Shown here one piece after another: positions 6,264 through 45,912 of a stretch of DNA of 64,000 nt. How positions within the stretch are numbered: position 1 is the stretch's first letter; every line of letters starts with the position of its first letter. The DNA is from Myxococcota bacterium (GTDB taxonomy: Bacteria > Myxococcota_A > UBA9160 > UBA4427), in assembly GCA_041389445.1 (NCBI GenBank), contig JAWKRW010000005.1, positions 242,243 to 306,242 of the forward strand. Direction: 5' to 3'. A program made the translations under genes and the position numbers. A model generated the notes under the pieces. It was not told the origin of the DNA. It did not search any database and saw only the letters and a list, made by a program, of their open reading frames with translations.

Positions 6264-6668
6264 GTGAACACGGCTTCGGCGACTCGTTCGAGCGCAGTCC
6301 ATGCGTCGCGCCAGCACGCTGCCCGTCCGACCCTCCGGTGCGTCTTCGTCCTGCTGGTTCTCGGATTCCTGCTGTCAGCCTCCGATGCCTGGAGCTACGC
6401 GTGGCGGACGGGGGCGTACGGGCAGTGCTCGCTGAGCTGCGGCGGCGGCCTGCCGACGCGGTCGGTGATCTGCGTGGACGATGTCGGGACGCCGGTGGCG
6501 GAGTCGTTCTGTGCGGGTCAGCCGAAGCCGGCGACGTCGCAGGCCTGTAACGATCAGGCGTGCGTCGCCGAGGTCCCTGCGCTCGCACCGCTCGTTCGCG
6601 CTGGCCTCGTCCTCGTCGCGACCGGTCTCGGCGGCGTGATCCGTCGACGTCGTCGGCGGCGGGGGTGA
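6264..6668 (+). CDS. Small secreted protein with one thrombospondin type-1 repeat (TSP1) and a C-terminal VPXXXP/PEP-CTERM-like sorting tail
   Basis: Signal-like segment CVFVLLVLGFLLSASDA. TSR signature WSYAWRTGAYGQCSLSCGGGLPTRSVICVDD...FCAGQPKP..QACNDQAC. Tail VPALAPLVRAGLVLVATGLGGVIRRRRRRRG. The GTG start is uncertain. Confidence 0.7.
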   Translation: MNTASATRSSAVHASRQHAARPTLRCVFVLLVLGFLLSASDAWSYAWRTGAYGQCSLSCGGGLPTRSVICVDDVGTPVAESFCAGQPKPATSQACNDQACVAEVPALAPLVRAGLVLVATGLGGVIRRRRRRRG

Positions 6669-6867
6669 GCCGTCGTCCCCTTGGGTCGGGCGGGGACCGG
6701 CGGCGAGGGCCGGGGGCTCGCGATCGGGGGGCGGGGGCTTCGCAGACGTCTGATCGGGCGCATGGGGCGTCTTGTGGCTCGTTCCGAAAGGGAGGATGCT
6801 AGGTCGGTCGGTCGGCCACCCGGGAGTCGCTCGGAATGCGCTCGGCAGGCAGTCCTGGAGGTCCGTC

Positions 6868-7914
6868 GTGCCGCTGTCTGCTCGCCCCGAGGCGGCGACC
6901 GTTTCGGATCCCGAGTCCGGCTCGCTCGGGATCGCGATCGTCGCCCTGCTGATCCTGCTCCCGCTCTCCCTCCTCGCTCCGGTCCGTTCCGCCTCGGCCG
7001 TCGGGATCGATTGGGTCGACGTCCCCGGCCCCGGCAACGCCTGCGACGAGCAGGCCACCGGCTGCTTCGGCGCCGTCGCGACGAACTATCAGATCTCGCG
7101 GACGGAGGTCACGAATGCCCAGTACGCCGAGTTCCTGAACGCGAAGGCGGCCTCCGACCCGTTCGGGCTCTACAACCCGTCGATGGCCTCGGGCCAGGGC
7201 GGGATCGTCCGCAGCGGCAGCCCGGGGAGCTACGTCTATTCGACGATCGTCGGACGGGGCGAGATGCCCGTCGTCTTCGTCTCCTTCTTCGACGCCCTTC
7301 GCTTCGCCAACTGGCTCCACAACGGCCAGGGCAACGGCGATACGGAGAGCGGCGCCTACACCCTGCTCGGCGGTACCGCGACGCCGAGCAATGGCGCGAC
7401 CGTCGTGCGCGAGCCGGGCGCGACCGTCGTCGTTCCGCTCGAGGACGAGTGGTACAAGGCCGCCTACTACGATGCCGACTCGGACCTCTACTACGACTAC
7501 CCGGCGGGCTCCGATGACGTCATGACCTGTCAGGCGGGCGGGCTCTCGCCGAACGCGGCGAACTGCCTGGGCGGGCCGGGCGGTCTGGTCGCGGTCGGGA
7601 GCTATGCCGGCAGCGCGGGTCCGAACGGAACGTTCGACCAGGGCGGCAACGTCTACGAGTGGACCGAGACCCTCGTCGCCCAGAACCGTCGGCTTCGGGG
7701 CGGCTCCTGGTCGTCTTCGGCGAGCACCACGGGCGCCGCCTCCGGGAGCTTCACGGCGCCCGCGACCGAGAGCCAGCAGACCGGCATGCGTGTGGCCACG
7801 CCGAGCGGCGGCGCGGCGGTTCCGGCATCCTCGTCCGTCGGACTCGGCTTGCTGGGCGGCGCGCTCGCGGTGCTCGGTGGGCGCCGGATCCGCCGGACGG
7901 CGACGGAACCCTGA
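6868..7914 (+). CDS. FGE-sulfatase (SUMF1/EgtB/PvdO-fold) domain protein with C-terminal sorting tail
   Basis: FGE-sulfatase motifs are present (ISRTEVTNAQYAEFLN, PVVFVSFFDALRFANWL, GNVYEWTE..RLRGGSW). Signal peptide IAIVALLILLPLSLLAPVRSASA. Tail VPASSSVGLGLLGGALAVLGGRRIRR. GTG 6868 is preceded by GGAGG. The ORF is open from 6772, and ATG 6796 is an alternative start. Confidence 0.85.
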   Translation: MPLSARPEAATVSDPESGSLGIAIVALLILLPLSLLAPVRSASAVGIDWVDVPGPGNACDEQATGCFGAVATNYQISRTEVTNAQYAEFLNAKAASDPFGLYNPSMASGQGGIVRSGSPGSYVYSTIVGRGEMPVVFVSFFDALRFANWLHNGQGNGDTESGAYTLLGGTATPSNGATVVREPGATVVVPLEDEWYKAAYYDADSDLYYDYPAGSDDVMTCQAGGLSPNAANCLGGPGGLVAVGSYAGSAGPNGTFDQGGNVYEWTETLVAQNRRLRGGSWSSSASTTGAASGSFTAPATESQQTGMRVATPSGGAAVPASSSVGLGLLGGALAVLGGRRIRRTATEP

Positions 7915-9520: not shown

Positions 9521-12500
9521 ATGCCGATCCTGCTGCTCCTCCGACTCGCCCCGGCCCTCCTGGTCCTCCTGGTCTCCTCCTCCGCCCAGGCCGCCGGTCT
9601 GCAGAGCCGGTTCCTCCACCAGGGAAGCGCTTCGCCCGCGACCCAGGGCTGGACGGCCGTCGGCGTCTATCCAGGGCAGGCGGTCGTGGACCAGGGCGTG
9701 CCCGCGTGGAACATCGCCGATACCGGCACGGCGAGCGGCAATCTCGGCTACTACCTGCAGACGCCCACCGCGGCGGACATCGCGCGGGCGCGTCGCGTCG
9801 GCTGGACGCTGCGCGTCGTCCTCCGCGAGGTTCCGCCGACGAGCGGCGGGACCGTCCTCGGTCGGGCGCCCAACTACTCGGCCATGGCGGAGGTCGCGAA
9901 CGGTGCGCGCGCCTGGTCGCTCAGCTTCGGCAACGAGGCCGGGACGGGACGCATGCAGGTCCTGCTCGGCGGGACCACGACGACCCACACGCTCTCGTCC
10001 TCCGGCTATCACCTGCTCGAGCTGACCTACGTCCCCCAGACGAACAGCGTCGAGCTCCGCGCAGACGACGTCCTGTTGACGGAGGGATGGACCGGGGCCG
10101 CTTCGACGAGCACTCGCGTGATCTTCGGGGCCGGCGCCAGCGCGACGACGAACGAGGCGAACTACAACCGCGTCGAGTGGCTCGTCGGCGTACCCGACTG
10201 CAGCGACGGTCTCGACAACGATGGCGACGGTCAGGTCGACCTCGCCGACCGCGACTGCTTCGACGGGGAGGATCCGGGCGAGGCGACGCTCCCTCCCACG
10301 ACCGGCGACATCGCGTTCCTGCAGTACCGGTTCGACGACCACGACGGGTTCGGATTCGTCGTGCTCTCGGATCTCGCGGGCGACGACCCGTCGACGCCGG
10401 GCGTCGACGAGCGCGCGAGGATCCAGTTCACCGACGAGGGCTGGAACCTCTTCGGACTGCGCTTCGACGCCGACCGCGGCAGCGACAAGACCGAGCACAC
10501 CTGGGTCTGGACCGCGCCCGCCGCCGGCGTCCGCGCCGGGACCGTCATCAACTGCCAGGTCGGCTGCACGCTCGGCACGATCCAGGCGCCGACCGGGACC
10601 GACCCCGACCCGAACGTCCCCGGCGAGCCCGAGGAGTCGACGAACGAGATCGTCAACCTCGACAACGACCTCGGCGAGCAGCTCTTCGCCTTCCGGGGGG
10701 ATCGCAATCGACCGGTTCCGCTCTACGCGCTCAACGGGCGTCCGTGGGTCCCGCTCGCCGGGGCCGTCGACAAGCACGAGTCGGAGGTCCCCGTCGGACT
10801 CGTCAACGGACAGACCGCGATCAGCCTCCAGCAGGCGGCGGGCGAGGGCGACAACGGTCGCTACGGCCCCCGGACGCTCACGGGCACGCCGGCGCAGATC
10901 CGCGCGGCGATCAGCAACCCGGCCAACTGGGTTCTCGACAACTCCTCGAGCTTCGCGTTCCAGGCACCGAGCTGGTGGGCCGTCAACGTCATTCCGGACC
11001 TCGCGCCCCGCGTCGAGCCCGGTCCGCTCGGCAGCTCGATCGTGGCCTACGCCCAGGACGCGACGAGTCCCGCCGTCTCGCCCGGCGTCGAGCTGATCCT
11101 CTCGGATCCCGACACGCCGCCGCAGCTGCTCGATGCGACCGTCTCGGTCTCGTCGCGCTTCGGCGAGACGGCGGCGACCGTCACGGGAACGGGGCCGTCC
11201 CGCTTCGTCCAGATCGAGTCGACGGACCTCGACGTCGCCGACCTGACCGTCCGCGTCAGCGACGGTCGCTTCACCCGCGAGCATCGCCTTCGCTACTACG
11301 CGCGCTCGCCCCTGAATCCGGGCGCGCTTCCGCCCCTGACGCACAACGGCATCGCCGACGCCTCCTCCGCGCTGCCCTTCCAGCTCGGCGGCGAGGACTA
11401 CATGATCGTCGCCAACGACGAGCGCAACGGCATCGTCGACGGCCTGTTCATCTACGAGCGCAACGCCTCGGGCGCGCCCCTCAAATGGGTCGACCTCTCG
11501 GTCTGGGCCGGATGGCTCTGGTTCATCGGGATCACGGACCCGCCCTGGGAGCTCGACCTCGAAGGATCGCTCAGGACGACGAATCCCGATCGGATGTGGT
11601 GGATCGGATCGTCGAGCAACAACGACGACGGGCTGTGTCGCCCCCAGCGCTTCGGCCTCTACTCGACGCAGCTCGTCTCGGGATCCGAGGGTGCGGTCGA
11701 CTTCGGCGACCTGCTCGGCTCGTCGATCGATCGCGACGTCGCCTTCTACGGCTTCCGCAACGACGTCGGCTTCCAGTTCCTCGACTGGGATCAGGCGGGC
11801 GGTCACGGCCGCGGCGCGAATCACTACGGATTCGCGGTCGGTCAGCAGTGCCGCGTCGACACGTCGATCCTGCCGGGCGGCTTTCCGGTTCCGCCGGTTC
11901 CCGCCTGGAGCCCGAAGCGCGACGACGGCTTCAACATCGAGGGATTCGCGCTGGCGCCGAGCTCGCAGACGACCGCGTTCGTCGGATTCCGTGCGCCGCT
12001 CGTGCCGCATTACAAATCGGGTGGAAGCGCGCGGAGCCGCGCGCTCCTCGTTCCGATGGTCATCGATCAGTCCTATCTGACGGACAGCCCGTTCCAGTCT
12101 CCCGGGCAGGATCTCGACTTCGGCACGCCGATCGAGCTCGATCTCGACGGTCGATCGATCCGCAGCATCGAGCGCAACGACGAGGACGAGTACGTCATCA
12201 TCGCGGGCTCGACCGGCGAGCACGGTCCGCCGCCCGACGATTTCCGCCTCTACACCTGGACCGGACGCGATCCCGACGTCACGGGCGATCCCGCGGACAT
12301 GCCGGTCATCCACTCGGCCGATCTCGCCGCGGCGCGCAACGGATTCGGGAGCTTCGAGTCGATCGTCGAGGTGCCGGACGACCTCGACGGCGCGGAGCTC
12401 CAGCTGCTGCTCGACGACGGCACGGCCTTCCTCTACGACGAGCTGATCGATGCGCTGGGTGGCGACTCGGGCCTGAGCCGGGCGCTCAAGACGCTGCCCC

Positions 12501-14878
12501 AACCCTTCCAGGAGTTCCGCAGCATGCGGGTCCGGCTCGACGCCGCGACCTGCTGGGCGAGTCACGACGGCGGGGCCACCGTCTTCGCCAGCGCCGACGC
12601 ACAGGCCGTCCAGAACGCCGTTCATCGGGCGGGGAGCGGTGCGACGGTCCGCATCGCCGGTCAATGCGAAGGTGGGAGCTATGTCGTCCTCCCGAGCGGC
12701 CTCAAGAGCGCCACGAGCGCGGCGCTCTACCTGATCGGCAAGAACCTGACGCTCGAAGGCGGCTACGCGCCCGGCTCGAACGGGACCGGACTCGCCGGCA
12801 TTCCCGACCCCGTCGCGCATCCGACCCGCCTCGCCGGCGGCGACCCGCGCTTCGCGCTCTCGCTCGACGCGTCGAACGTCACGGTCCGTGACCTCGTGCT
12901 CGGCGGCACGCCTCTCGGGCCGATCGCGCTCCTGAACGGATCGAACATCGTGTTCGACGGCGTCTCGATCGAAGGCGACGCGGATCTCGATCTCGTCGGG
13001 GACGACGTCGACAATTGTCCGAACGCCCCGAACGCGAGCCAGGCCGACCAGGATGGCGACGGCGTCGGCGACGCCTGCGATCTCTGTCCCTCGGTCTCGA
13101 ATCCCGATCAGCTCGACGCCGACGGCGACGCACGCGGCGACGCGTGCGAGGCCTGCCCCGGGATCTTCGATCCGCTCGACTTCGATCGGGGCGGCCTCGG
13201 CAGCGCCACCGTCGGCGATGGGACGCCCGACGCCTGTCAGTGTGGCGATCTGACCGGCGACGGCGGCCTGCTCGCCGGGGCGGGCCAGGACGTCGATCGG
13301 CTGCGCGACGCGCTGGCGGGTCGCGGGCTTCCGCTGGACGCGGCGGGCGCCGCGCGGTGTGCCGTCTACGACGGATCCCCGCGCTGCGACATCCGCCAGG
13401 CCGTCGTGCTCGCGCGCGCGCTCGCGACGCCGGCCGGCGGGCCCGGCGTCGGGGCGGCGTGTGGCGGCGCGAATCCGCGGCCGATCCATCAGTGGACCTT
13501 CAACGCCGGCCCGAGCGATCTCGTGGGCGGCGCGGACGGGACCCTGATGAACGGCGCTGCGGTCGTCGGTGGCGCACTCGAGCTCGACGGCATCGACGAC
13601 TACCTCGTGACGCCGCCGCTCGCGCGCAGCATCGGGCCGCGCACGCTCGTCGTCTGGCTCGAGCTCGCCTCGACGGCCCAGCGCAGCGGCGGGGCGCTGA
13701 CGCTCCAGGACGCGAACGGCACCGACGTCTTCGACGCCATCGTCTACGGCGAGAACACCGCGAACCGCTGGCTCAACGGCAGCGACTTCGCGACGCGCTC
13801 GCACCTCACGTCGCGGGGGAACGACGGCGCGCTCGAGACGGCGCTGCAGCCGCAGACGATCCAGATCGTCGTTCGCTACGAGGCGGATGGGACGATCCGG
13901 ATCTTCCGCGATGGCCAGCCCTACACGACCGCGCCCTACGCCTCGGGCGCTCCGCCGATTCGCTACGAGGCGGGTCGCGCGAACGTCCTGATGGGTCTCC
14001 GACATCAGGACGTCGCCGGAACGACCGGGAGCCTCGCCGGGAACGACCCCTATCTCGCGGGGCGCATCGATGAGGCCCGGATCTACGCGGTCGCCCTCGA
14101 CGACGCGCAGATCGAGCGGCTCTTCGTCGAGGGGCCCGTGCCCTTCGATCCGATGCCGGGGCTGCCGGCGCCGAAGCTCTGGCTCGACGCGTCGGCCTTC
14201 GACTCGATCGACGTCGCGGGCGACGGATCGGTCATCGAGTGGCGCGATCGGGCGAACGGGCTCGCGCTGCGCGCATCCGTTCCGGGCGAGCGGCCGCGAC
14301 AGCCCCTGGGCGGCGGGATGCTCGATTTCGACGGCGTCGACGACCACCTCTGCTCGAGCGATCCGATCGACCTGCGAGCGGGCGCGACGATCTTCGTCGT
14401 CGCCTCCAACGACCGGCGGAAGAGCTACCAGGGGCTCTTCAGCCAGCGCTCCTCCCGCTTCGAGAACGCGGACGTCGAGGTCTACTGGCAGGCGGGGACC
14501 GGCGGGAGCGGCAATCTCGTCTACGCCGCGAACCGCCGTCAGTCGGGCGGCAACCCCTCGTACTTCGTCTCGGCCAACGCCCCACCCAACGTCCCGACGC
14601 GCTATCTGGTGACGATCGAGGCGACCAGCGACGCCGCACCGGGCGTGCTTCGGACGAATCGTTCGACTCGTGCGAACACGCAGATCCTGGACAACCATGC
14701 GTTCTTCCCGGATCCGGTCTGGCCGGTCTGTGTCGGATACGGCGTGGGAACGACGCCGGCCGGCAACACGCTCGAGGGCGGATTGGCCGAGGTCCTCGTC
14801 TTCGAGGGCACGCTGACGCCGAGCCAACGCGACGACGTCGAGGCCCATCTGATGGACAAGTGGGAGGTGGCGCGATGA
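9521..14878 (+). CDS. Giant secreted multidomain surface protein (MopE-like metal-binding motif, TSP type-3 repeats, two LamG/concanavalin-like domains)
   Basis: 1785 aa. Signal peptide MPILLLLRLAPALLVLLVSSSAQA. A DCSDGLDNDGDGQVDLADRDC motif lies at about 10.2 kb. TSP3-like repeats lie at about 13.0-13.2 kb (DNCPNAPNASQADQDGDGVGDACDLCPSVSNPDQLDADGDARGDACEACP). Two LamG_3-like modules are present (..GALELDGIDDYLV.. and ..GMLDFDGVDDHL..). Confidence 0.9.
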   Translation: MPILLLLRLAPALLVLLVSSSAQAAGLQSRFLHQGSASPATQGWTAVGVYPGQAVVDQGVPAWNIADTGTASGNLGYYLQTPTAADIARARRVGWTLRVVLREVPPTSGGTVLGRAPNYSAMAEVANGARAWSLSFGNEAGTGRMQVLLGGTTTTHTLSSSGYHLLELTYVPQTNSVELRADDVLLTEGWTGAASTSTRVIFGAGASATTNEANYNRVEWLVGVPDCSDGLDNDGDGQVDLADRDCFDGEDPGEATLPPTTGDIAFLQYRFDDHDGFGFVVLSDLAGDDPSTPGVDERARIQFTDEGWNLFGLRFDADRGSDKTEHTWVWTAPAAGVRAGTVINCQVGCTLGTIQAPTGTDPDPNVPGEPEESTNEIVNLDNDLGEQLFAFRGDRNRPVPLYALNGRPWVPLAGAVDKHESEVPVGLVNGQTAISLQQAAGEGDNGRYGPRTLTGTPAQIRAAISNPANWVLDNSSSFAFQAPSWWAVNVIPDLAPRVEPGPLGSSIVAYAQDATSPAVSPGVELILSDPDTPPQLLDATVSVSSRFGETAATVTGTGPSRFVQIESTDLDVADLTVRVSDGRFTREHRLRYYARSPLNPGALPPLTHNGIADASSALPFQLGGEDYMIVANDERNGIVDGLFIYERNASGAPLKWVDLSVWAGWLWFIGITDPPWELDLEGSLRTTNPDRMWWIGSSSNNDDGLCRPQRFGLYSTQLVSGSEGAVDFGDLLGSSIDRDVAFYGFRNDVGFQFLDWDQAGGHGRGANHYGFAVGQQCRVDTSILPGGFPVPPVPAWSPKRDDGFNIEGFALAPSSQTTAFVGFRAPLVPHYKSGGSARSRALLVPMVIDQSYLTDSPFQSPGQDLDFGTPIELDLDGRSIRSIERNDEDEYVIIAGSTGEHGPPPDDFRLYTWTGRDPDVTGDPADMPVIHSADLAAARNGFGSFESIVEVPDDLDGAELQLLLDDGTAFLYDELIDALGGDSGLSRALKTLPQPFQEFRSMRVRLDAATCWASHDGGATVFASADAQAVQNAVHRAGSGATVRIAGQCEGGSYVVLPSGLKSATSAALYLIGKNLTLEGGYAPGSNGTGLAGIPDPVAHPTRLAGGDPRFALSLDASNVTVRDLVLGGTPLGPIALLNGSNIVFDGVSIEGDADLDLVGDDVDNCPNAPNASQADQDGDGVGDACDLCPSVSNPDQLDADGDARGDACEACPGIFDPLDFDRGGLGSATVGDGTPDACQCGDLTGDGGLLAGAGQDVDRLRDALAGRGLPLDAAGAARCAVYDGSPRCDIRQAVVLARALATPAGGPGVGAACGGANPRPIHQWTFNAGPSDLVGGADGTLMNGAAVVGGALELDGIDDYLVTPPLARSIGPRTLVVWLELASTAQRSGGALTLQDANGTDVFDAIVYGENTANRWLNGSDFATRSHLTSRGNDGALETALQPQTIQIVVRYEADGTIRIFRDGQPYTTAPYASGAPPIRYEAGRANVLMGLRHQDVAGTTGSLAGNDPYLAGRIDEARIYAVALDDAQIERLFVEGPVPFDPMPGLPAPKLWLDASAFDSIDVAGDGSVIEWRDRANGLALRASVPGERPRQPLGGGMLDFDGVDDHLCSSDPIDLRAGATIFVVASNDRRKSYQGLFSQRSSRFENADVEVYWQAGTGGSGNLVYAANRRQSGGNPSYFVSANAPPNVPTRYLVTIEATSDAAPGVLRTNRSTRANTQILDNHAFFPDPVWPVCVGYGVGTTPAGNTLEGGLAEVLVFEGTLTPSQRDDVEAHLMDKWEVAR

Positions 14879-18332: not shown

Positions 18333-20426
18333 TCAGGGCATCGGATCGGATCCGTTCCAGAGCGTGCCGAAGACGATCGGTAGCCGCTCGTCGCCCTGCT
18401 CGAAGCCGACGAGGACCTCGTCGCCGATTTCGGGCACGCGCGCGCTCCCGAGGTTCCCGATCGCCTGGGCGACCCGGACCCAGGCGCTCGAGCGCTCGTC
18501 GGTCGAGCCGCTGCGATCCCAGAGGAAGCGCACGCGGATGCGGCCGAGCGAGTCGGTGAAGACGGTCTCGCCGGCGGGGCCCGTCACGATCGCGGTCTGG
18601 ATCGCGGGGATGCTGGGCCGCGGCGTCAACGCGGGCGGGCGGTAGGTCTTCGTCGAAGGAATCGCTTCGAACGCGTTGGCGTAGCCGTAGCAGCGGCGGG
18701 TCTCGTCATAGAGGGCGACGTGGTCGACGCGGATCGCGACGAAGTTGCCGCCGAGGCCGTTGGCGGTCGCGTCGGTGGCGCGGAAGACGTGGCCACCGCG
18801 GAGTCCGGGCAGGTTGCTCGTGCCGACGGCCACGTGCGACGCGAGCTCGGCTCGGCTCGCGACGACGGTCGCGCGTGCGGCCGTCTCGGCCGAATCGGGC
18901 TCGGCGACCGCGTACTGGTAGATCTCGCCCGTCGCGCCGAGGCCGGCGCGAACGACGGTGCTCTGGACGACGATCCCGCCCGGGTCGGCGAGCGAGAAGC
19001 CACGGATCGTCGCGCGCTCGCTGTAGGAGCGGTGGAGTCGGGCCAGCGAGGTGAAGCGGTTCGACGCGACCGAAGGACCGGCGAGGTGGCCGCCGTAGGT
19101 TCCGGTCGGACCCGAGCCGTAGCCGGCCGTGGAGTCGCCGAGGACCATCTGGCCCGCCGCGTTCGCGTAGTAGTAGATGCCCTCCTCCTCGAGCAGCCGA
19201 CTGACGAAATCAAGGGCCGTCTCGTCGTACTGCATCGCGAACTCGAGCGTCGGCGGGTTGCCCGCGATGTTGGCGGCGAGGCCCGAGGCAGGCAGACCGG
19301 CGTCGTCGAAGACGAGCTGGACGAGGTCGGGCGCGTTCGAGCCCTGACGGATCGAATAGCCGGCGTGGAGTCGCAGCCGCGCGGCAGCGGGCTCGATGCG
19401 GACGAGATAGGTCGTCAGCCCCGCGTCGGACGCGACCGGACCGAACTCGGTCACGACGCCCGTGAAGGTTTCCGTCAGTCCGCCGCGCGTGATCGTCGAT
19501 GCGGCGCCCTGGTCGATGAAGCCGCTCTCCGAGAGTCCGGCGGAGGCCTGGAAGAGGACGGCACGGAACGGCATCTGGGACATCGCGTCGCGCCCCAGGA
19601 TCGCGACGACACCGGTCTGCACCTTGCCGCCGACGGCCAGCCCGACCGTCGCGCCCTCGCCCGTGAGCGAGCAGTCGCCCTGGATGGGCAGATCGAAGGG
19701 CAGCCCATCCCGCAGCTCGGGCACGCGTGCGAGATCGGCGAGGTCCTGCACCGCCGCACCGCGCGCCTCGCCCGGCAGCCCGCGATCGCCCTTCGCCCCC
19801 GTCGCACCCGGCGGTCCGGTCGGGCCTGTCGGCCCGGTCGGACCAGCAGGCCCCGCCGGACCCTGCGCCCCGGTCGCGCCAGGCGGGCCGGCCGGCCCCG
19901 CCGGTCCGATCGGGCCTTCGGGGCCCGCCACCGGATCCGCACAGATCCAGGTTCCCGCGATCTGGCGCAGGCTCTGCCCTTCGCCGCAGAGGGGCGCCAG
20001 GCGATCCGGAGCGAGGGCGCCGACCGCGACGTCGTCGGCCACTGCGGCGCGCAGCGCGTAGGCGTCGCTCGCGAGTCGCACGCGGGGCGCCAACGGATCG
20101 CCGCCGACGACGATCTCGAGCCAGCGCTCGAGCCCGTCGAGCAGATCCGGCGAGAGGGGCGTCAGGCTGCCGAGCTCGAGCGACACGAGCCCGCCCGCGA
20201 CGGGGACGGCCGCATGTGTCTCCTCCCAGAGGAAGTTGTCGCCCGTCGCGTCGTCGTAGATCCGGAACCGCAGGTCGACGGCGCCGTCGAGGAGCTGGCC
20301 GGTCGCGTCGCGAACGACCGCTTGATAGTGGAGCAACGCGGGAGTCGTCGCGCGCGTGGCCGCGGCCGGGAGGAGGAGCGCGAGCGCGAGCAGGAGCATG
20401 GGGATCGGGCGGATGCGGTCTGTCAT
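18333..20426 (-). CDS. Secreted chimeric protein: signal peptide, N-terminal domain, collagen-like GXY tract, VgrG-like gp27 plus gp5-OB module (no beta-helical spike)
   Basis: ATG 20426 gives [26 protein letters not shown]. 18 GXY triplets follow. VgrG hallmarks then appear: [40 protein letters not shown] and [52 protein letters not shown]. The start overlaps the upstream stop as ATGA. Confidence 0.85.
19765..19926 (-). repeat. Collagen-like triple-helix repeat coding tract (18 x G-X-Y)
   Basis: [54 protein letters not shown], read in the frame of the 18333..20426 CDS. Confidence 0.85.
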
Positions 20427-20953
20427 GGGTTCGGCTCCCGGGCGAGGCGGCGCCAACGGATCGGACCGGCGCGACGAAGACCGGCGGACCGTCGAAGGCA
20501 GCCGGACCGTCGAAGGCCGGCGAGCAGGGCGAGGGCGAGCGGAAGCGCATGAGCCTGCGACGGCTCGGGCACGCTCTGGGCCGCGAGCACGCCGCCGATG
20601 CCGCCGACCCAGCGCGGATGGCCTCCGGCATCGACGAGTGCCGCGGAGCCCGCGGTCTGGCCGAGACTCACGGCCTGCTGCGCGTTCGTCGAGCCGGTCC
20701 AGCTCGCTCCGCCGCCGTCGACGCCGGGCGCGATCAGCTCCTGCGCCGTCGCCGAGCCGCTCGCGAGCAGGCCGATCCCGAGTCCGATCCCGATGCCGAG
20801 GGCGAGCCCGAGCGCGCGCGCTGTGCGGATCGTGCGGCCGAGGCCGGGCGCGCACCGCTCTCGGGCGAAGAGCGATCCCCCGCGGACGGCTGCGCGAACC
20901 GGCCTGCGGCGTGCGGATCGAGCGCTGGAGCCGAGGTCGGATCGGATCGGCAT
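20423..20953 (-). CDS. Small PEP-CTERM protein with an expanded basic tail
   Basis: Signal-like segment [26 protein letters not shown], a short Gly/Ala-rich mature part, then [23 protein letters not shown]. The tail carries (GLRRSG)(CLRRSA)(GLRRAG), encoded by an 18-bp x3 repeat at 20465-20518. Confidence 0.6.
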
Positions 20954-20963
20954 AGCAGCGATC

Positions 20964-22031
20964 CTAACAGGAACCGATCGGTGGGCGGAAGCGGGAAGGC
21001 GGACGCCGCGCGCGACCCGGCGTCGCCGCGAGCAGGAGGAGCAGGCCGCCCGCGACCAGGCCGCCGCCGATGGCCGGCTCGGGGAGATAGGCCGTGACGC
21101 CGTCGACGCCGGTGCAGATCAGGCTCGCATGGGACGTCCAGTGCATCGTGCCCGTGAAGGACGCGAAGTCGGAGGCGATCGTGAGGGGGTTGTCGTTGGC
21201 GTCGAAGACCGTGAGATCGCCGCCCGACTCGCGGATGGCGAGCCCGAGGCGGATCGTCTGGCCCGAGACGCGACCGCGGATCCGGGTCTGGCCGAAGTCG
21301 ACCGGGACGGTGAACTCGACGAGCGGCCCCGACTGCTCGATCGTGACCGGAACGACGACCGGCGTCGGATCGATCGGATCGCAGGTATCGCCCGTCTGCA
21401 CGGCGGTCACCGTCCAATCGCTGCCGCTCAGGTTGCCGGGCGTGCCGGCGCCGGCGCGGCTGAAGGACCAGGTCTCGGTTCCGGCGCACGCCTCGGGCCA
21501 GTAGAACTCCCAGCCGAGCGTTCCGCTGAAGAGGTCGCCGGCGGCGTTGCGCGTGAGCGACGAGTCGGCCGGGTCGTAGAGCGTCGCCCCCCCGTCTTCG
21601 AAGACCTCGAAGCCGAGCTCGAGATCGGAGCCCGATCGCCTGCCCTCGATCGGCGTCTGACCGGGGAGACCGCCCGGTACGTCGACGGCGAAGAGACCGC
21701 CCGATTCGAGGATGTCGACCCCGTTCGCCTCGGCGGGGCCGAGCGGGTCGCCGCACGTGTTCGAGATCTCCTCGACCGTGATCTGCCAGCTGCCGGTGAG
21801 CGATTGGGCCGAGGCCAGGCTCGCGGCTCCCGCCGCGCCCACGACCAGCATGACGCCGAGGACGCCCGCGCGCGCGCCATGCCGCTTCGACCTCGTCTGC
21901 GGCGCCGCTCCGCCGTCTGCCTGCCCGGGCAGGGCCGATTCGCGATCGGGCATCCGCCGACGGCCTGGGGCGGCTTGGATCAGGGCGCGCAGATGATCCT
22001 GGGTGGATCGGGCGCGCAGGTCGGCGGCCAT
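20964..22031 (-). CDS. PEP-CTERM sorting domain protein
   Basis: Signal peptide AGVLGVMLVVGAAGAASLASAQS. C-terminus AYLPEPAIGGGLVAGGLLLLLAATPGRARR. GGAGGG lies upstream of ATG 22031. ATG 21953 is an alternative start. Confidence 0.75.
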   Translation of the reverse strand: MAADLRARSTQDHLRALIQAAPGRRRMPDRESALPGQADGGAAPQTRSKRHGARAGVLGVMLVVGAAGAASLASAQSLTGSWQITVEEISNTCGDPLGPAEANGVDILESGGLFAVDVPGGLPGQTPIEGRRSGSDLELGFEVFEDGGATLYDPADSSLTRNAAGDLFSGTLGWEFYWPEACAGTETWSFSRAGAGTPGNLSGSDWTVTAVQTGDTCDPIDPTPVVVPVTIEQSGPLVEFTVPVDFGQTRIRGRVSGQTIRLGLAIRESGGDLTVFDANDNPLTIASDFASFTGTMHWTSHASLICTGVDGVTAYLPEPAIGGGLVAGGLLLLLAATPGRARRPPSRFRPPIGSC

Positions 22032-22185
22032 GGAACCCTCCGATCTCCCCCCATGTCGCCATCATCTCCACCGCGATCGGATGCGTCAACCCGGAATCGC
22101 GCGCCTTCGCGCCCGTTCGCGCGTGACACCGGGAAGAATCGCCACGACGCCCGCGAGCGACGTCCACCCCGCCGGCTCCGGAACG

Positions 22186-23220
22186 TCACCGGGGTCGGTT
22201 CCAGCCTGGGCAGCCGCCGGATCGACGGGATCGACGGGCGGGTCCATCGGCGGCAGTCCGGCGTCGCCGGCGCAGTCCGGCCCAGTGGATCAGCAGTCCG
22301 CAGGCGGCAGATGAAGCGCAGAGGGCGTCGGGCTCGGGGAGATAGGTCTCGATGCGATCGATGCGCGCGCCGACCGAGGCCGCGGGCGCATCGTTGTTGG
22401 TCGAGGTCGTCACGAAGATGGCGTCCTCGAGGGCGTCGAGCGTGTCGAAGCTCGGATGGGTCGAAACCGGCGTCACGAAGAGCTCGTCTCCCACGCGCAG
22501 GCTGCCCTGGAGCTCGCGCACATCGAGGTCGAAGCGCAGCTCGATCTCGAAGGCGGCGCCCCCGCGAATCGCCGCATCGGCCGTCGGCGAGAGGAAGACC
22601 TGTTGATAGCCGCCGAGGATGCCCGGCCCGAGGTTGCTGATCGCGATGCGCAGCGAGCCGCTTCCGAACGAGAGCAGGTAGGCCGAGACGCCGTTGCCGA
22701 CGGTCAGATCGCGGAACGTCAGCGCGACCGTCTGGAAGGCGCCGTTGACGGGGTCGTTGGTGACGGAGTAGCCGTCGAAGCGGCCATAGAGGCCGATCGT
22801 GCCGGTCGACGGGGCGGGCCCGATCGCGAGCCGGGCCCCCGCGGACTGCAGATTCGCGGCGGAGCCGGGGGCCTCGACGACCGGGATCGAGAGGCCGCTT
22901 CCGTCGAAGGTCGGCGCGGAAGGCAGCGGATCGCCGAGCTGGAGCGCGTCGAGGCCTCCGAGGCCGTTCGAGTCGACGTCGGGGGTCGTCGGAAAGCCGG
23001 TTTCGCCCGTGAAATCCTCCACCCAGCCCGGCTCGCCGAGATCGTCGAGGAGGTCGACGGCCCGGGCGGTGGGGGCGATCGGCGCGAGGAGCAGGGCGCT
23101 GGCGAGGAGCCGTCCGAGTCGGCGTGACGTCGCGACCGAGGCGGCGAGACGGCCCACCCGATCGACGGCGCGGGGCATCGAGCTCGAGGTCGCGATCAGT
23201 CGCGGGTCAGGGTTCATCAT
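22186..23220 (-). CDS. PEP-CTERM sorting domain protein
   Basis: Signal-like segment RRLGRLLASALLLAPIAPTARA. C-terminus TYLPEPDALCASSAACGLLIHWAGLRRRRR. AAGGA lies upstream of ATG 23220. ATG 23178 is an alternative start, and the ORF is open to 23382. Confidence 0.75.
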   Translation of the reverse strand: MMNPDPRLIATSSSMPRAVDRVGRLAASVATSRRLGRLLASALLLAPIAPTARAVDLLDDLGEPGWVEDFTGETGFPTTPDVDSNGLGGLDALQLGDPLPSAPTFDGSGLSIPVVEAPGSAANLQSAGARLAIGPAPSTGTIGLYGRFDGYSVTNDPVNGAFQTVALTFRDLTVGNGVSAYLLSFGSGSLRIAISNLGPGILGGYQQVFLSPTADAAIRGGAAFEIELRFDLDVRELQGSLRVGDELFVTPVSTHPSFDTLDALEDAIFVTTSTNNDAPAASVGARIDRIETYLPEPDALCASSAACGLLIHWAGLRRRRRTAADGPARRSRRSGGCPGWNRPR

Positions 23221-44025: not shown

Positions 44026-45912
44026 ATGCGCATGCGATTCAAGTTGCGGGGATCGGGCGGTTGGCTCTTCGCGCTCGCTCTCCTTGGCGCGGCCGGGGCG
44101 TCGGCCTTTCCGAACTACGGAACCTCGGTCGATTCGACCTGTACCGCCAATGGCTGGGTACCGGCGCGACCGTACGCGAGCAGCGGCAGCGATTGCGGCC
44201 TGTGTCATACGAGCGCCTCGAATCCCGGCTCGAGCCTGACCCCGGCGGGCGATCAGTACCGCCGCTCCGGTCATGCGGACGTGACGCCCTTCTGCTCGGC
44301 CCCCGCCGCCAATCGCGCGCCGTCCTTCGCGCCGATTGCCGCGCAGACCGCGACCGTCGGCTCGCCCTTCGCGCTGACGGTCACGGCGACGGATCCCGAC
44401 GGCGACGCGCTGCTCCTCAGCGCGGGCAACGCGCCGAGCGGATCGAGCTTCGTCGACGACGGCAACGGGACGGGCCGCTTCAGCTGGACGCCGACCGCTG
44501 CCCAGCTCGGCGCCCATGCCGTCACGTTCCACGTCACGGATACCGGCACGCCGATGGCCGTCGCGTCCCTCGAGGTCTCGATCGCGGTCGGTCAGGCCGT
44601 GAATCGGCCGCCGGTCCTCGATCCGATCGGGAACCAGCAGCTCGACCCCGGACAGACGCTCGACTTCACGCTGTCGGCGACCGACCCCGAAGGTCAGTCG
44701 CTCGCGTTTTCGGCGACCGGACTTCCGGCGGGTGCCGCGCTGCTCGGGGCGGACTTCGCCTGGACGCCCGACGCGACCCAGATCGGACAGCACACGATCG
44801 TCTTCACCGTCACGGACACGGGCTCGCCCGCCGCTTCCGACAGCGAGACGGTCGTCTTCACCGTCGGCCGCATCAATCGCCCGCCCGTCCTCTCGGCGAT
44901 CGGCAATCGCCAGGTCCAGGTCGGCAGCGAGCTGCGCGTCGGTCTGACCGCGACGGACCCCGACGCGGATCCGATCGCACTCGACTGCACGGACCTGCCG
45001 GTCGACGCGGTCTTCACCGACTTCGACGACGGGACCGCCGAGATCGTCTGGATGCCGTCCGCCGCCGCCCGCTCCAGCGTGACGTGCACCGCGACCGATA
45101 CCGGTGCGCCGCCCGAGCAGGATGCCGAGACGTTCACGCTCTCGGCCGTCGACGCCACGAACGCCGCGCTCCCGACCCTCGAGACCGCCTCGTGGCGGAT
45201 CGCGCGCGGCGGCGGACGACTCGCGGTGCGGGGCACGCTGCCGACGACCGAGGCCGGTCCGCGCGGCGGTCGCCCGACGCTCGACGTGTTCGCGGTGCTC
45301 GGCGATGGCATGCCGGTCCTGCTGGGCAGCCGGGCGGGACAGCGGAACGGATCCTTCCGGTTCGAGCTCGATCCCTTCATCGCTCCTTGCGCCGTCGCGG
45401 TCGCGAGCGGCGGCGTCATGAGCGAGGTCGTCGACGTGATCGGCGCGCCGAGCGATTGCGACACCGACCTGCGCACCTTCGCCCGCGCGCGGAACGCCTG
45501 CGACGGATCGACGCTCGTGGTGGCGGGCGCGCGCGGACCGATCGGTGGCCGGGTCGTCGTCAGCGACGCGATCGATGGCGCGATGCTCGGCGTGTTCGAC
45601 GTCAGCGACCGCAACGGTCGCTTCGGCGGCCGGCTGAACGACGTGGGCGTGCCGGCCGAGGTCGGACTCCGGGCAGAGGTCGGCGGTCTCAGCTGGTCGC
45701 TCGCGACGCCGCTTCCAGTCTCCCGCGATCGACGCTGCAGCCGCGTCGACGAGGACGACGACGACCGCGCCGCCGCCACCGGTGACGACGAGGACGACGA
45801 CGAGTCGGACGACGACGCGAGCGAGGGCCTCGACCGCGCGCGCGTCGAGGCGCGCACGACCGGAGGATCGACGGAGGCCCGTTCGCGCCCGCGTCGAAGG
45901 GAGCGGGACTGA
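44026..45912 (+). CDS. Secreted protein with CXXCH motif, three cadherin-like/He_PIG Ig repeats and a poly-acidic C-terminal tail
   Basis: ATG 44026 is preceded by GGAGG. Signal peptide WLFALALLGAAGASA. CGLCH motif. There are three ~95-aa repeats (NRAPSFAPIAAQTATVGSPFALTVTATDPDGD.. / NRPPVLDPIGNQQLDPGQTLDFTLSATDPEGQ.. / NRPPVLSAIGNRQVQVGSELRVGLTATDPDAD..). Tail VDEDDDDRAAATGDDEDDDESDDDASE. Confidence 0.8.
   Translation: MRMRFKLRGSGGWLFALALLGAAGASAFPNYGTSVDSTCTANGWVPARPYASSGSDCGLCHTSASNPGSSLTPAGDQYRRSGHADVTPFCSAPAANRAPSFAPIAAQTATVGSPFALTVTATDPDGDALLLSAGNAPSGSSFVDDGNGTGRFSWTPTAAQLGAHAVTFHVTDTGTPMAVASLEVSIAVGQAVNRPPVLDPIGNQQLDPGQTLDFTLSATDPEGQSLAFSATGLPAGAALLGADFAWTPDATQIGQHTIVFTVTDTGSPAASDSETVVFTVGRINRPPVLSAIGNRQVQVGSELRVGLTATDPDADPIALDCTDLPVDAVFTDFDDGTAEIVWMPSAAARSSVTCTATDTGAPPEQDAETFTLSAVDATNAALPTLETASWRIARGGGRLAVRGTLPTTEAGPRGGRPTLDVFAVLGDGMPVLLGSRAGQRNGSFRFELDPFIAPCAVAVASGGVMSEVVDVIGAPSDCDTDLRTFARARNACDGSTLVVAGARGPIGGRVVVSDAIDGAMLGVFDVSDRNGRFGGRLNDVGVPAEVGLRAEVGGLSWSLATPLPVSRDRRCSRVDEDDDDRAAATGDDEDDDESDDDASEGLDRARVEARTTGGSTEARSRPRRRERD

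Follow-up and report, generated by a model that had tools for sequence, protein, structure and literature searches.

Predicted collagen-stalked proteins with a needle-less VgrG module and a PEP-CTERM-like partner: a locus in a Myxococcota bacterium

The locus and its gene calls

Four co-directional genes, here termed g1 to g4, lie on the minus strand at positions 18333-23220 of a 64-kb window of the 422.6-kb contig JAWKRW010000005.1 (Myxococcota bacterium, assembly GCA_041389445.1), the window being the whole stretch of DNA that was analysed. The last of them, g4, encodes a predicted secreted protein in which a collagen-like stalk is joined to a VgrG-type module, and g3, which overlaps it, encodes a small protein whose tail resembles an exosortase sorting signal. 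The window is approximately 70% G+C, and open reading frames (ORFs) by themselves therefore carry little weight. The minus-strand frames of all four genes are backed by a plot of G+C at third codon positions (GC3), the signal being clear for g1, g2 and g4, and clear in the 5' half but Gly/Ala-biased in the 3' half of g3, which is the weakest of the four. Window positions 20753-17434 have a colinear counterpart, at approximately 90% DNA identity, in L004, an independent metagenome contig. Compared with this contig, g3 shows no insertion or deletion, its substitutions fall 12/11/22 by codon position, and its VPEP tail and stop codon are kept. The possibility that g3 is an artefact of a gene on the opposite strand, as called on L004, is ruled out by this substitution pattern and the conserved VPEP tail. 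A longer, 840-residue g4 starting from GTG at 20855 was likewise rejected; in that frame GC3 falls upstream of 20426, and the extension is Arg-rich nonsense. The initial annotation had placed four genes at these coordinates and in this direction, and both are borne out by the GC3 plot and, for g3, by the comparison with L004.

The short intergenic distances that had been noted are also upheld: g3 and g4 share an ATGA stop/start overlap, g2 and g3 are separated by 10 nt (direct reading), and the gap between g1 and g2, previously given as about 150 nt, is 154 nt. All four predicted N-termini comprise basic residues, a hydrophobic stretch of 13-19 residues and a small-x-small site, and the proposal that each product bears a Sec-type signal peptide is supported by this heuristic, most cleanly for g4. 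Starting from the annotated ATGs, the n-regions of g2 and g3 are unusually long. A six-frame regular-expression scan of the whole 64 kb detected four motifs of PEP, hydrophobic stretch and basic cluster, all of them minus-strand and within 20.5-22.4 kb, a clustering that is far from a chance spread. Three of these are the tails of g1, g2 and g3, and the fourth lies in another frame of the g1-g2 spacer. The three tails had been described as canonical PEP-CTERM signals; the motif is present, but 'canonical' was an overstatement, with every tail falling below threshold on the TIGR02595 model. Rfam and tRNA scans of the window gave no RNA genes.

Domain organisation of g4

The g4 product is composed, in order, of a predicted signal peptide, a 139-residue beta-sandwich domain (hereafter the N-domain), 18 collagen triplets and the VgrG module (Table 1). 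Residues A26, P29, L31, H33, Y34 and Q35, around the predicted cleavage site, are invariant in the family, and the A-x-A site just ahead of the N-domain is kept even in relatives in which the protein is fused to a g3-like part. The stalk matches Pfam Collagen (2.5e-8, 34 bits against a cutoff of 27.2); a 9-nt insertion in the L004 copy corresponds to one triplet, and relatives carry 17-26 triplets. The C-terminal module matches Pfam Phage_GPD (5e-40) and Phage_base_V (8e-12). In an AlphaFold2 model the predicted local distance difference test scores are 84-97 for the N-domain and 93-98 for the VgrG module, and the top Foldseek match of the model is Pseudomonas aeruginosa VgrG1 (4mtk; E 1e-37, root-mean-square deviation 2.7 A over 453 columns), with 7q5p and 9mlp among the other top matches.

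The module does not extend past the OB fold. The match to the NCBIfam VgrG model TIGR03361 covers model positions 16-451 of 513, and the C-terminus of g4 aligns to residue 457 of the 643-residue VgrG1 of P. aeruginosa (PA0091). No beta-helix needle is found in g4, which leaves no place for a PAAR cap, and PF22178 and PF06715, which are carried by needle-bearing VgrG matches, do not occur in it. The gp27 plus gp5-OB module that had been proposed is thus recovered by Pfam, TIGR03361 and Foldseek, with the qualification that of gp5 only the OB fold is present. Similarly, the description of g4 as a collagen-VgrG chimera is correct for those two parts, but it overlooked the 139-residue N-terminal domain, which is widespread behind signal peptides.

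The chimera family has four invariant cysteines, at g4 residues 147, 162, 252 and 579 (window positions of about 19986, 19941, 19671 and 18690). Cys147 and Cys162 flank a hairpin ahead of the collagen, Cys252 lies in the linker and Cys579 in the gp27 hub. Their conservation would fit an oxidising extracytoplasmic location.

Table 1. Features of the four-gene stretch and their positions in the window
Feature	Position	Strand	Description
g1	22186..23220	-	344-residue predicted secreted protein; LPEP, hydrophobic stretch and RRRRR tail, with 23 more residues after it
g1-g2 spacer, 3' 125 nt	22061..22185	-	sigma-70-like promoter match and alternative-frame PEP-like tail
g2	20964..22031	-	355-residue predicted secreted protein; two tandem domains of ~115 residues; LPEP, hydrophobic stretch and RARR end
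g3	20423..20953	-	176 residues: predicted signal peptide, ~60-residue Gly-rich hairpin-motif domain, VPEP, helix and Arg-rich tail
g3 PEP tail	20572..20498	-	motif scan
ATGA overlap coupling g3 to g4	20423..20426	-	direct reading; same arrangement in L004
g4	18333..20426	-	
g4 signal peptide, residues 1-26	20349..20426	-	sequence heuristic; predicted cleavage TRA/TTP
g4 N-domain, residues 27-165	19932..20348	-	beta-sandwich with HYQAV...ERWLE signature, then Cys147/Cys162 hairpin
g4 collagen stalk, residues 168-221	19764..19925	-	18 uninterrupted Gly-X-Y triplets
g4 VgrG-type module, residues ~259-697	18336..19652	-	gp27-like hub (Phage_GPD 287-570) and gp5 OB fold (625-690)

The fold of the module is also common to Mu gp44, T4 gp27 and the PVC/AFP spikes, which raises the question of whether g4 could be a decayed prophage or tailocin baseplate hub that has been fused by chance to a collagen gene. 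This origin is scarcely credible. There are no phage genes within the 64 kb, the reading frames are intact, and the substitutions between g4 and its L004 counterpart (36/33/142 by codon position) point to purifying selection. Moreover, the architecture is conserved down to 41% identity across many lineages, and the substitution pattern and this conservation together appear to bring the remnant explanation close to refutation.

Relatives of g4 and of its VgrG module

Full-architecture relatives are rare in a word-indexed search: P0002 shares 91% identity with g4, P0003, P0004 and P0005 share 49-57%, and P0121, P0124 and P0126 share 40-45%. Their genomic neighbourhoods are unlike the window and unlike one another. 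Representative proteins, 1.84 billion in all, were searched exhaustively with HMMER for the VgrG part alone (residues 225-697); this gave 13,231 matches, and the best 148 modules were analysed. Half of these best modules (74 of 148) carry an N-terminal extension of more than about 90 residues, and 67 of the 74 have a signal-peptide-like start. The g4-type N-domain was present in approximately 40 of the best 79 that were tabulated, the remainder having IPT-, PEGA- or dockerin-like or coiled-coil N-terminal parts, and at least five collagen triplets occur in 24 of the 74 extended proteins. At the other end, 24 stop directly past the OB fold and 47 run on for at least 100 residues; C-terminal extensions of 100-800 residues are found in relatives with the same N-domain and VgrG module. 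One such relative, P0392, combines a signal peptide, N-domain and VgrG module with Gp5_trimer_C and Peptidase_S74 domains, and the end of another, P0129, resembles an H-type lectin domain by eye. P0392 stands alone among housekeeping genes on a 1.96-Mb contig, and P0360, in a genome bin of Acidobacteriota, is just as isolated.

Proteins in which the module begins near residue 1, without a hydrophobic N-terminus, are first seen at about 193 bits in the HMMER ranking. VgrGs with gp5 C-terminal Pfam domains reach at most 211 bits, at 28-36% identity, in the word-indexed search, and the chimera clade is without these domains. A rough neighbour-joining tree places 63 of the 74 extended proteins in one clade. 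Taken together, the domain content and N-termini of these sequences indicate that one or more clades of VgrG-module proteins with predicted signal peptides exist. [quoted passage not shown] P0360, P0372, P0357 and P0367, for example, are signal-peptide-bearing and N-extended, are labelled 'type VI secretion system tip protein TssI/VgrG' (NCBI, JGI), and also exceed the NCBIfam VgrG cutoffs.

The N-domain

Two sequence patterns of the N-domain, P[APS]L[IL]HYQAV and [LF]DGxERWLE, retrieved 43 further loci in a scan of GTDB representative genomes, from approximately ten phyla that include Planctomycetota, Verrucomicrobiota, Krumholzibacteriota, Chloroflexota and Eisenbacteria. In nearly every locus the domain lies a few residues behind a signal-peptide-like N-terminus, and collagen is often next. 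There is no Pfam family for it, and a profile search of 5.8 billion proteins returned almost solely fragments of 120-190 residues without names or Pfam family, with no link to Bdellovibrio sequences. Bdello_MAT_N, the NCBIfam model for the N-terminal domain of Bdellovibrio mosaic adhesive trimer (MAT) fibres, is the only family matched by more than one member, with 7 of 31 N-domain family members matching it. This match weakly suggests a place for g4 among chimeric trimeric fibres.

Resemblance to MAT fibres brings with it the suggestion that a predatory bacterium employs g4 as a contact weapon or to handle prey, in which case the VgrG head of the exported fibre would bind or breach the envelope of another cell. 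The gp27-gp5 module derives from cell-puncturing machines, and the N-domain and collagen part of g4 matches proteins of Polyangium and Sorangium. In addition, MAT fibres act in prey recognition (PMC10769870). Even so, g4 has no needle, PAAR or toxin domain and no energy source comparable to a contracting sheath, and we regard a predatory role as improbable.

g3 and its link to g4

The g3 product is homologous to N-terminal modules that are fused to the fibre in P0003 and P0004 (tblastn 5e-6 and 1e-5, respectively). A g3-like part is in one reading frame with the fibre in P0003, P0004, P0005, P0121, P0124 and P0357. From the N-terminus, these fused proteins carry one signal peptide and a domain of about 60 residues with the Gly-rich hairpin motif; [VA]PEP, a hydrophobic helix and a stretch rich in Arg come next, followed by a second signal-peptide-like helix with an A-x-A site and then the HYQAV N-domain. 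The same junction of PEP-CTERM and second signal peptide is present in P0417 behind a different N-terminal part. The g3-type modules of P0121 (23.7/19.5 bits) and P0003 (17.0 bits) exceed the TIGR02595 cutoff of 16. Homology and fusion thus mark g3-g4 as the only conserved link among the four genes. By the positive-inside rule, the small domain and the fibre would, in the fused form, each lie on the outer side of the inner membrane.

The fused proteins can also be taken to suggest that the fibre is kept within the envelope. On that account the 'signal peptide' of g4 would be an uncleaved anchor, which in the fused relatives would pair with the PEP helix in a helical hairpin, and a fibre of about 25-30 nm would span the periplasm from the inner membrane, with its VgrG head toward the outer membrane. 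The fused relatives do have two adjacent membrane helices with an Arg-rich loop between them, stalks of 17-26 triplets would measure about 15-22 nm from the known collagen rise per residue, which is on the scale of the periplasm, and no route of export across the outer membrane is evident in the window. Set against this, the small-x-small site before the N-domain is conserved in fused and unfused members alike, relatives carry adhesin-type tips, and Bdellovibrio MAT fibres, which the N-domain weakly matches, are reported to be surface-localised (PMC10769870). A periplasm-spanning fibre is consequently judged unlikely.

Comparable arrangements were observed at three other loci. A single frame of a Verrucomicrobiia metagenome-assembled genome (MAG; L013, 6874-10122, plus strand) encodes a protein part of about 290 residues with IPEP, helix and RRKR, followed by a second signal peptide, an FTYQGQL N-domain and a long collagen region; the mid-protein PEP-CTERM junction is the same, and there is no VgrG module. 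In an Acidobacteriota MAG (L054, 3424-3948, plus strand), a gene for a 174-residue secreted protein with a similar Gly-rich hairpin motif and no PEP tail ends 17 nt ahead of P0360, the gene for an N-domain plus VgrG fibre. A gene of 183 residues lies 8 nt upstream of P0126.

g1, g2 and the spacer between them

The initial annotation had treated the four genes as one operon. As a conserved unit this does not hold, since g1 and g2 have no counterpart beside any relative, with no homologue of either in the 55 fetched loci, and a promoter-like site lies between them. Neither product has a match in Pfam or NCBIfam. The ATG of g1 at 23220 is preceded by a Shine-Dalgarno-like site, GGAAAGGA, and the g1 tail scores 17.9 bits on the PVV-CTERM model (cutoff 27). 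The two tandem domains of g2 are copies of one another (37% identity, E 2e-15), with one Cys close to the beginning of each copy and one close to its end. A promoter scan gave two sites, against 0.1 expected in shuffles, with the sigma-70-like match TTGACG-17-GATGAT at 22089..22061 (minus strand), some 30 nt upstream of where g2 begins; the minus strand of 17.3-23.8 kb gave no terminator-like site. To judge from this promoter-like match, transcription of g2-g3-g4 without g1 appears possible.

Directly past the g1 stop codon, in a different frame, the spacer encodes a PEP-CTERM-like tail, VPEPAGWTSLAGVVAILPGVTRERARRRA, followed by a stop (22184..22089, minus strand). An ATG 21 codons upstream would turn this tail into an ORF of 53 residues, and it could be a relic, a tiny gene in itself or another end of g1 reached by frameshift. 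Overall, g1 and g2 are lineage-specific secreted neighbours with similar tails, outside the conserved unit, and they may share a sorting route with g3.

Genomic surroundings

Approximately 50 candidate ORF products of the window were scanned against Pfam, and none gave a match to Hcp, sheath, baseplate, ClpV, PAAR, phage-tail or extracellular contractile injection system (eCIS) families. The earlier statement that no contractile-machine genes lie within the 64 kb is therefore confirmed. In L001, L049, L052 and L054, which hold relatives, there are likewise no T6SS or eCIS genes within 10 kb of the gene; the flanks covered 17.7 kb for L001 and 22 kb of a 79-kb contig for L049. The neighbours of g1-g4 in the window comprise enzymes of metabolism, regulators and a number of predicted secreted proteins with repeats.

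Orphan vgrG genes and islands far from the T6SS cluster are common. It could be proposed that g4 is a decorated orphan T6SS spike, fired by a T6SS elsewhere on the chromosome, with its N-terminal extension as cargo in the Hcp tube. The module does have the VgrG1 fold, g4 exceeds the cutoffs of both NCBIfam VgrG models (TIGR03361, 254.7 bits against 186.35; TIGR01646, 207.4 bits against 121.8), its relatives are annotated as VgrG in public records, and the best needle-bearing matches include Myxococcota VgrGs. Several features nevertheless make an orphan spike very improbable. The product begins with a predicted Sec-type signal peptide and a conserved cleavage site, ahead of a domain that is found nearly everywhere behind signal peptides; it has no beta-helix or PAAR platform; and the 258-residue N-terminal extension would occupy the site at which the Hcp tube docks. 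The nearest relatives are mostly signal-peptide-bearing, some with S74 or lectin-like tips, and no T6SS genes are near any of the five loci examined (the window, L001, L049, L052 and L054).

Other genes of the window encode predicted secreted proteins. On the plus strand, 6264-6668 encodes one with a thrombospondin type-1 domain that ends in VPALAPL..RRRRRRRG, and 6772-7914 one with an FGE-sulfatase domain that ends in VPASSSVGLGLL..GGRRIRR; both ends are sorting-tail-like and have no PEP. The latter product weakly matches the 'midcut-by-XrtH' model (21.7 bits, cutoff 45), as no other product of the window does, and also IPTL-CTERM (16.4 bits, cutoff 20.5). A large secreted repeat protein of 1785 residues with LamG and TSP3 matches is encoded at 9521-14878 (plus strand), and a secreted protein of about 600 residues with He_PIG, Big_9 and cadherin-like Ig repeats at 44110-45912 (plus strand). 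By these predictions the window is rich in surface or matrix proteins.

A proposed exported fibre

We consider it likely that g4 encodes a Sec-exported, homotrimeric fibre on a collagen stalk, headed by a needle-less VgrG module and co-produced with a small exosortase-type partner, and that it is not a T6SS spike. In this model the signal peptide would be removed behind Ala26, exposing the beta-sandwich N-domain, which would lie nearest the cell and belongs to a type found behind the signal peptide in the chimeric MAT fibres of Bdellovibrio and in hundreds of other proteins. As a triple helix, the 18 collagen triplets would give a stalk about 15 nm long. The needle-less VgrG module, composed of gp27 hub and OB fold, would be the distal head; this pair is an obligate trimer in known systems, and the module probably also sets the register of the trimer. 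Translational coupling through the ATGA overlap would allow g3 to be made together with g4, whereas in the fused relatives a single polypeptide would be cut by signal peptidase and exosortase into the same two exported products. An exosortase encoded elsewhere is presumed to process the small g3 protein, and g3 and the fibre would then act together at the cell surface or in the matrix, with g3 possibly an anchor for the N-domain of the fibre. That the g4/g3 system is exported and cleaved, forms trimers, lies at the surface, depends on an exosortase and serves in adhesion or as a structure is what we infer from sequence and predicted structure.

A number of observations weigh against this proposal, in addition to the VgrG family scores and the frequency of orphan vgrG genes given above. 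The signal peptides were called from the sequence by eye and with a crude hydrophobicity score. The window offers no evident outer-membrane export route for the fibre, and its approximately 50 ORFs include no match to an exosortase (Exosortase_EpsH). On TIGR02595, with its cutoff of 16 bits, g3 scores 14.4 and g2 10.4, and g1 gives no match. The Bdello_MAT_N match of the N-domain, at 24-28 bits, is far below the cutoff of 60, and a fold search with the N-domain returned generic beta-sandwiches only (E of at least 0.017 in PDB and at least 1e-3 in BFVD). Eleven N-extended proteins fall outside the main clade of a tree that is itself rough. Lastly, 42 of the 43 non-chimera N-domain loci are without a PEP-CTERM partner, so that the anchor idea is not general.

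The suggestion in the initial annotation that a spike-fold module has been repurposed outside a contractile machine gains, in this modified form, from the signal-peptide-bearing relatives, the lack of T6SS genes in the five loci and the g3-type fusions. A broader and much more tentative generalisation is that there is a widespread, unrecognised class of Sec-exported trimeric fibres that reuses the spike hub as a head or trimerisation module away from any injection machine, and that one subclade produces the fibre along with a small exosortase-sorted partner, either in one precursor or as two translationally coupled products; this partner would be the surface element that MAT-type N-domains bind. 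The literature searched, the coverage of which was incomplete, yielded no description of Sec-exported VgrG modules, of collagen-VgrG fusions or of a link between VgrG and PEP-CTERM. The parts are all of known kinds (spike hub, collagen, MAT-like N-domain and PEP-CTERM tails), whereas the combination and the proposed cellular location are not, and g4 belongs to a larger clade that has gone unrecognised.

The gp27/gp5 spike hub is regarded as a hallmark of contractile injection systems. If the exported-fibre model is correct, this fold would have a further use outside the cell, in Sec-exported collagen, coiled-coil or MAT-like fibres, where it would serve as a structural or adhesive module. Such proteins exceed the cutoffs of curated VgrG hidden Markov models and bear T6SS names, and can inflate T6SS calls in MAGs; dozens of similar unstudied proteins carry weapon-part labels in public databases. 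The in-frame layout of PEP-CTERM and second signal peptide offers a natural setting for tests of exosortase signals located away from the C-terminus, as well as a concrete candidate for the anchor that holds MAT-type fibres to the cell.

Comparison with known systems

Compared with T6SS VgrG/TssI proteins, as represented by P. aeruginosa VgrG1 (PA0091; 4mtk), g4 shares the gp27-like hub and the gp5 OB fold. It differs from them in its signal-peptide-like N-terminus and N-terminal fibre part of 258 residues, in the absence of a needle and PAAR site, and in having no T6SS genes near it. The likeness of g1-g3 to substrates of PEP-CTERM/exosortase sorting (Haft et al. 2006, PMC1569441; TIGR02595) lies in the signal peptide and the PEP, hydrophobic helix and Arg cluster near the C-terminus. 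Unlike typical members, their tails score below threshold and run on for 20-25 residues past the basic cluster, and in the fused relatives of g4 the signal is mid-protein. The sole precedent found for this fused layout is 'midcut-by-XrtH' (NF033207), the family title of which implies a mid-protein signal of exosortase type; the likeness is one of layout only, as P0003, P0004, P0005, P0121 and P0124 give no match to the model at E <= 0.1.

The collagen-like surface proteins Scl1/Scl2, Lcl and Bucl are secreted, as g4 is predicted to be, and resemble it in having an uninterrupted Gly-X-Y stalk between globular domains. In contrast to g4, these families have no VgrG head and are anchored differently, and g4 matches them in the collagen repeats only, far below the family cutoffs.

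The MAT fibres of Bdellovibrio (NF053851) are surface-localised and have a beta-rich domain, conserved and about 130 residues long, directly behind the signal peptide (PMC10769870). For this N-terminal domain there is no structural homologue in the PDB, and it presumably binds an unidentified surface element (PMC10769870). Among the tips described there and in the supplement are folds of the S74, TNF-like, FGE, beta-helix, collagen-like and lectin types; VgrG is not listed, and Peptidase_S74 defines one MAT subfamily (PMC10769870). The match of the g4 N-domain to these proteins is weak, as noted above, and collagen takes the place of the MAT fibre body in the g4 stalk. The overall plan is nonetheless alike, with a signal peptide, a beta-rich domain, a stalk (trimeric in MAT fibres) and then a swappable distal module, and the g4 relative P0392 ends in Peptidase_S74, as does the S74 subfamily of MAT fibres.

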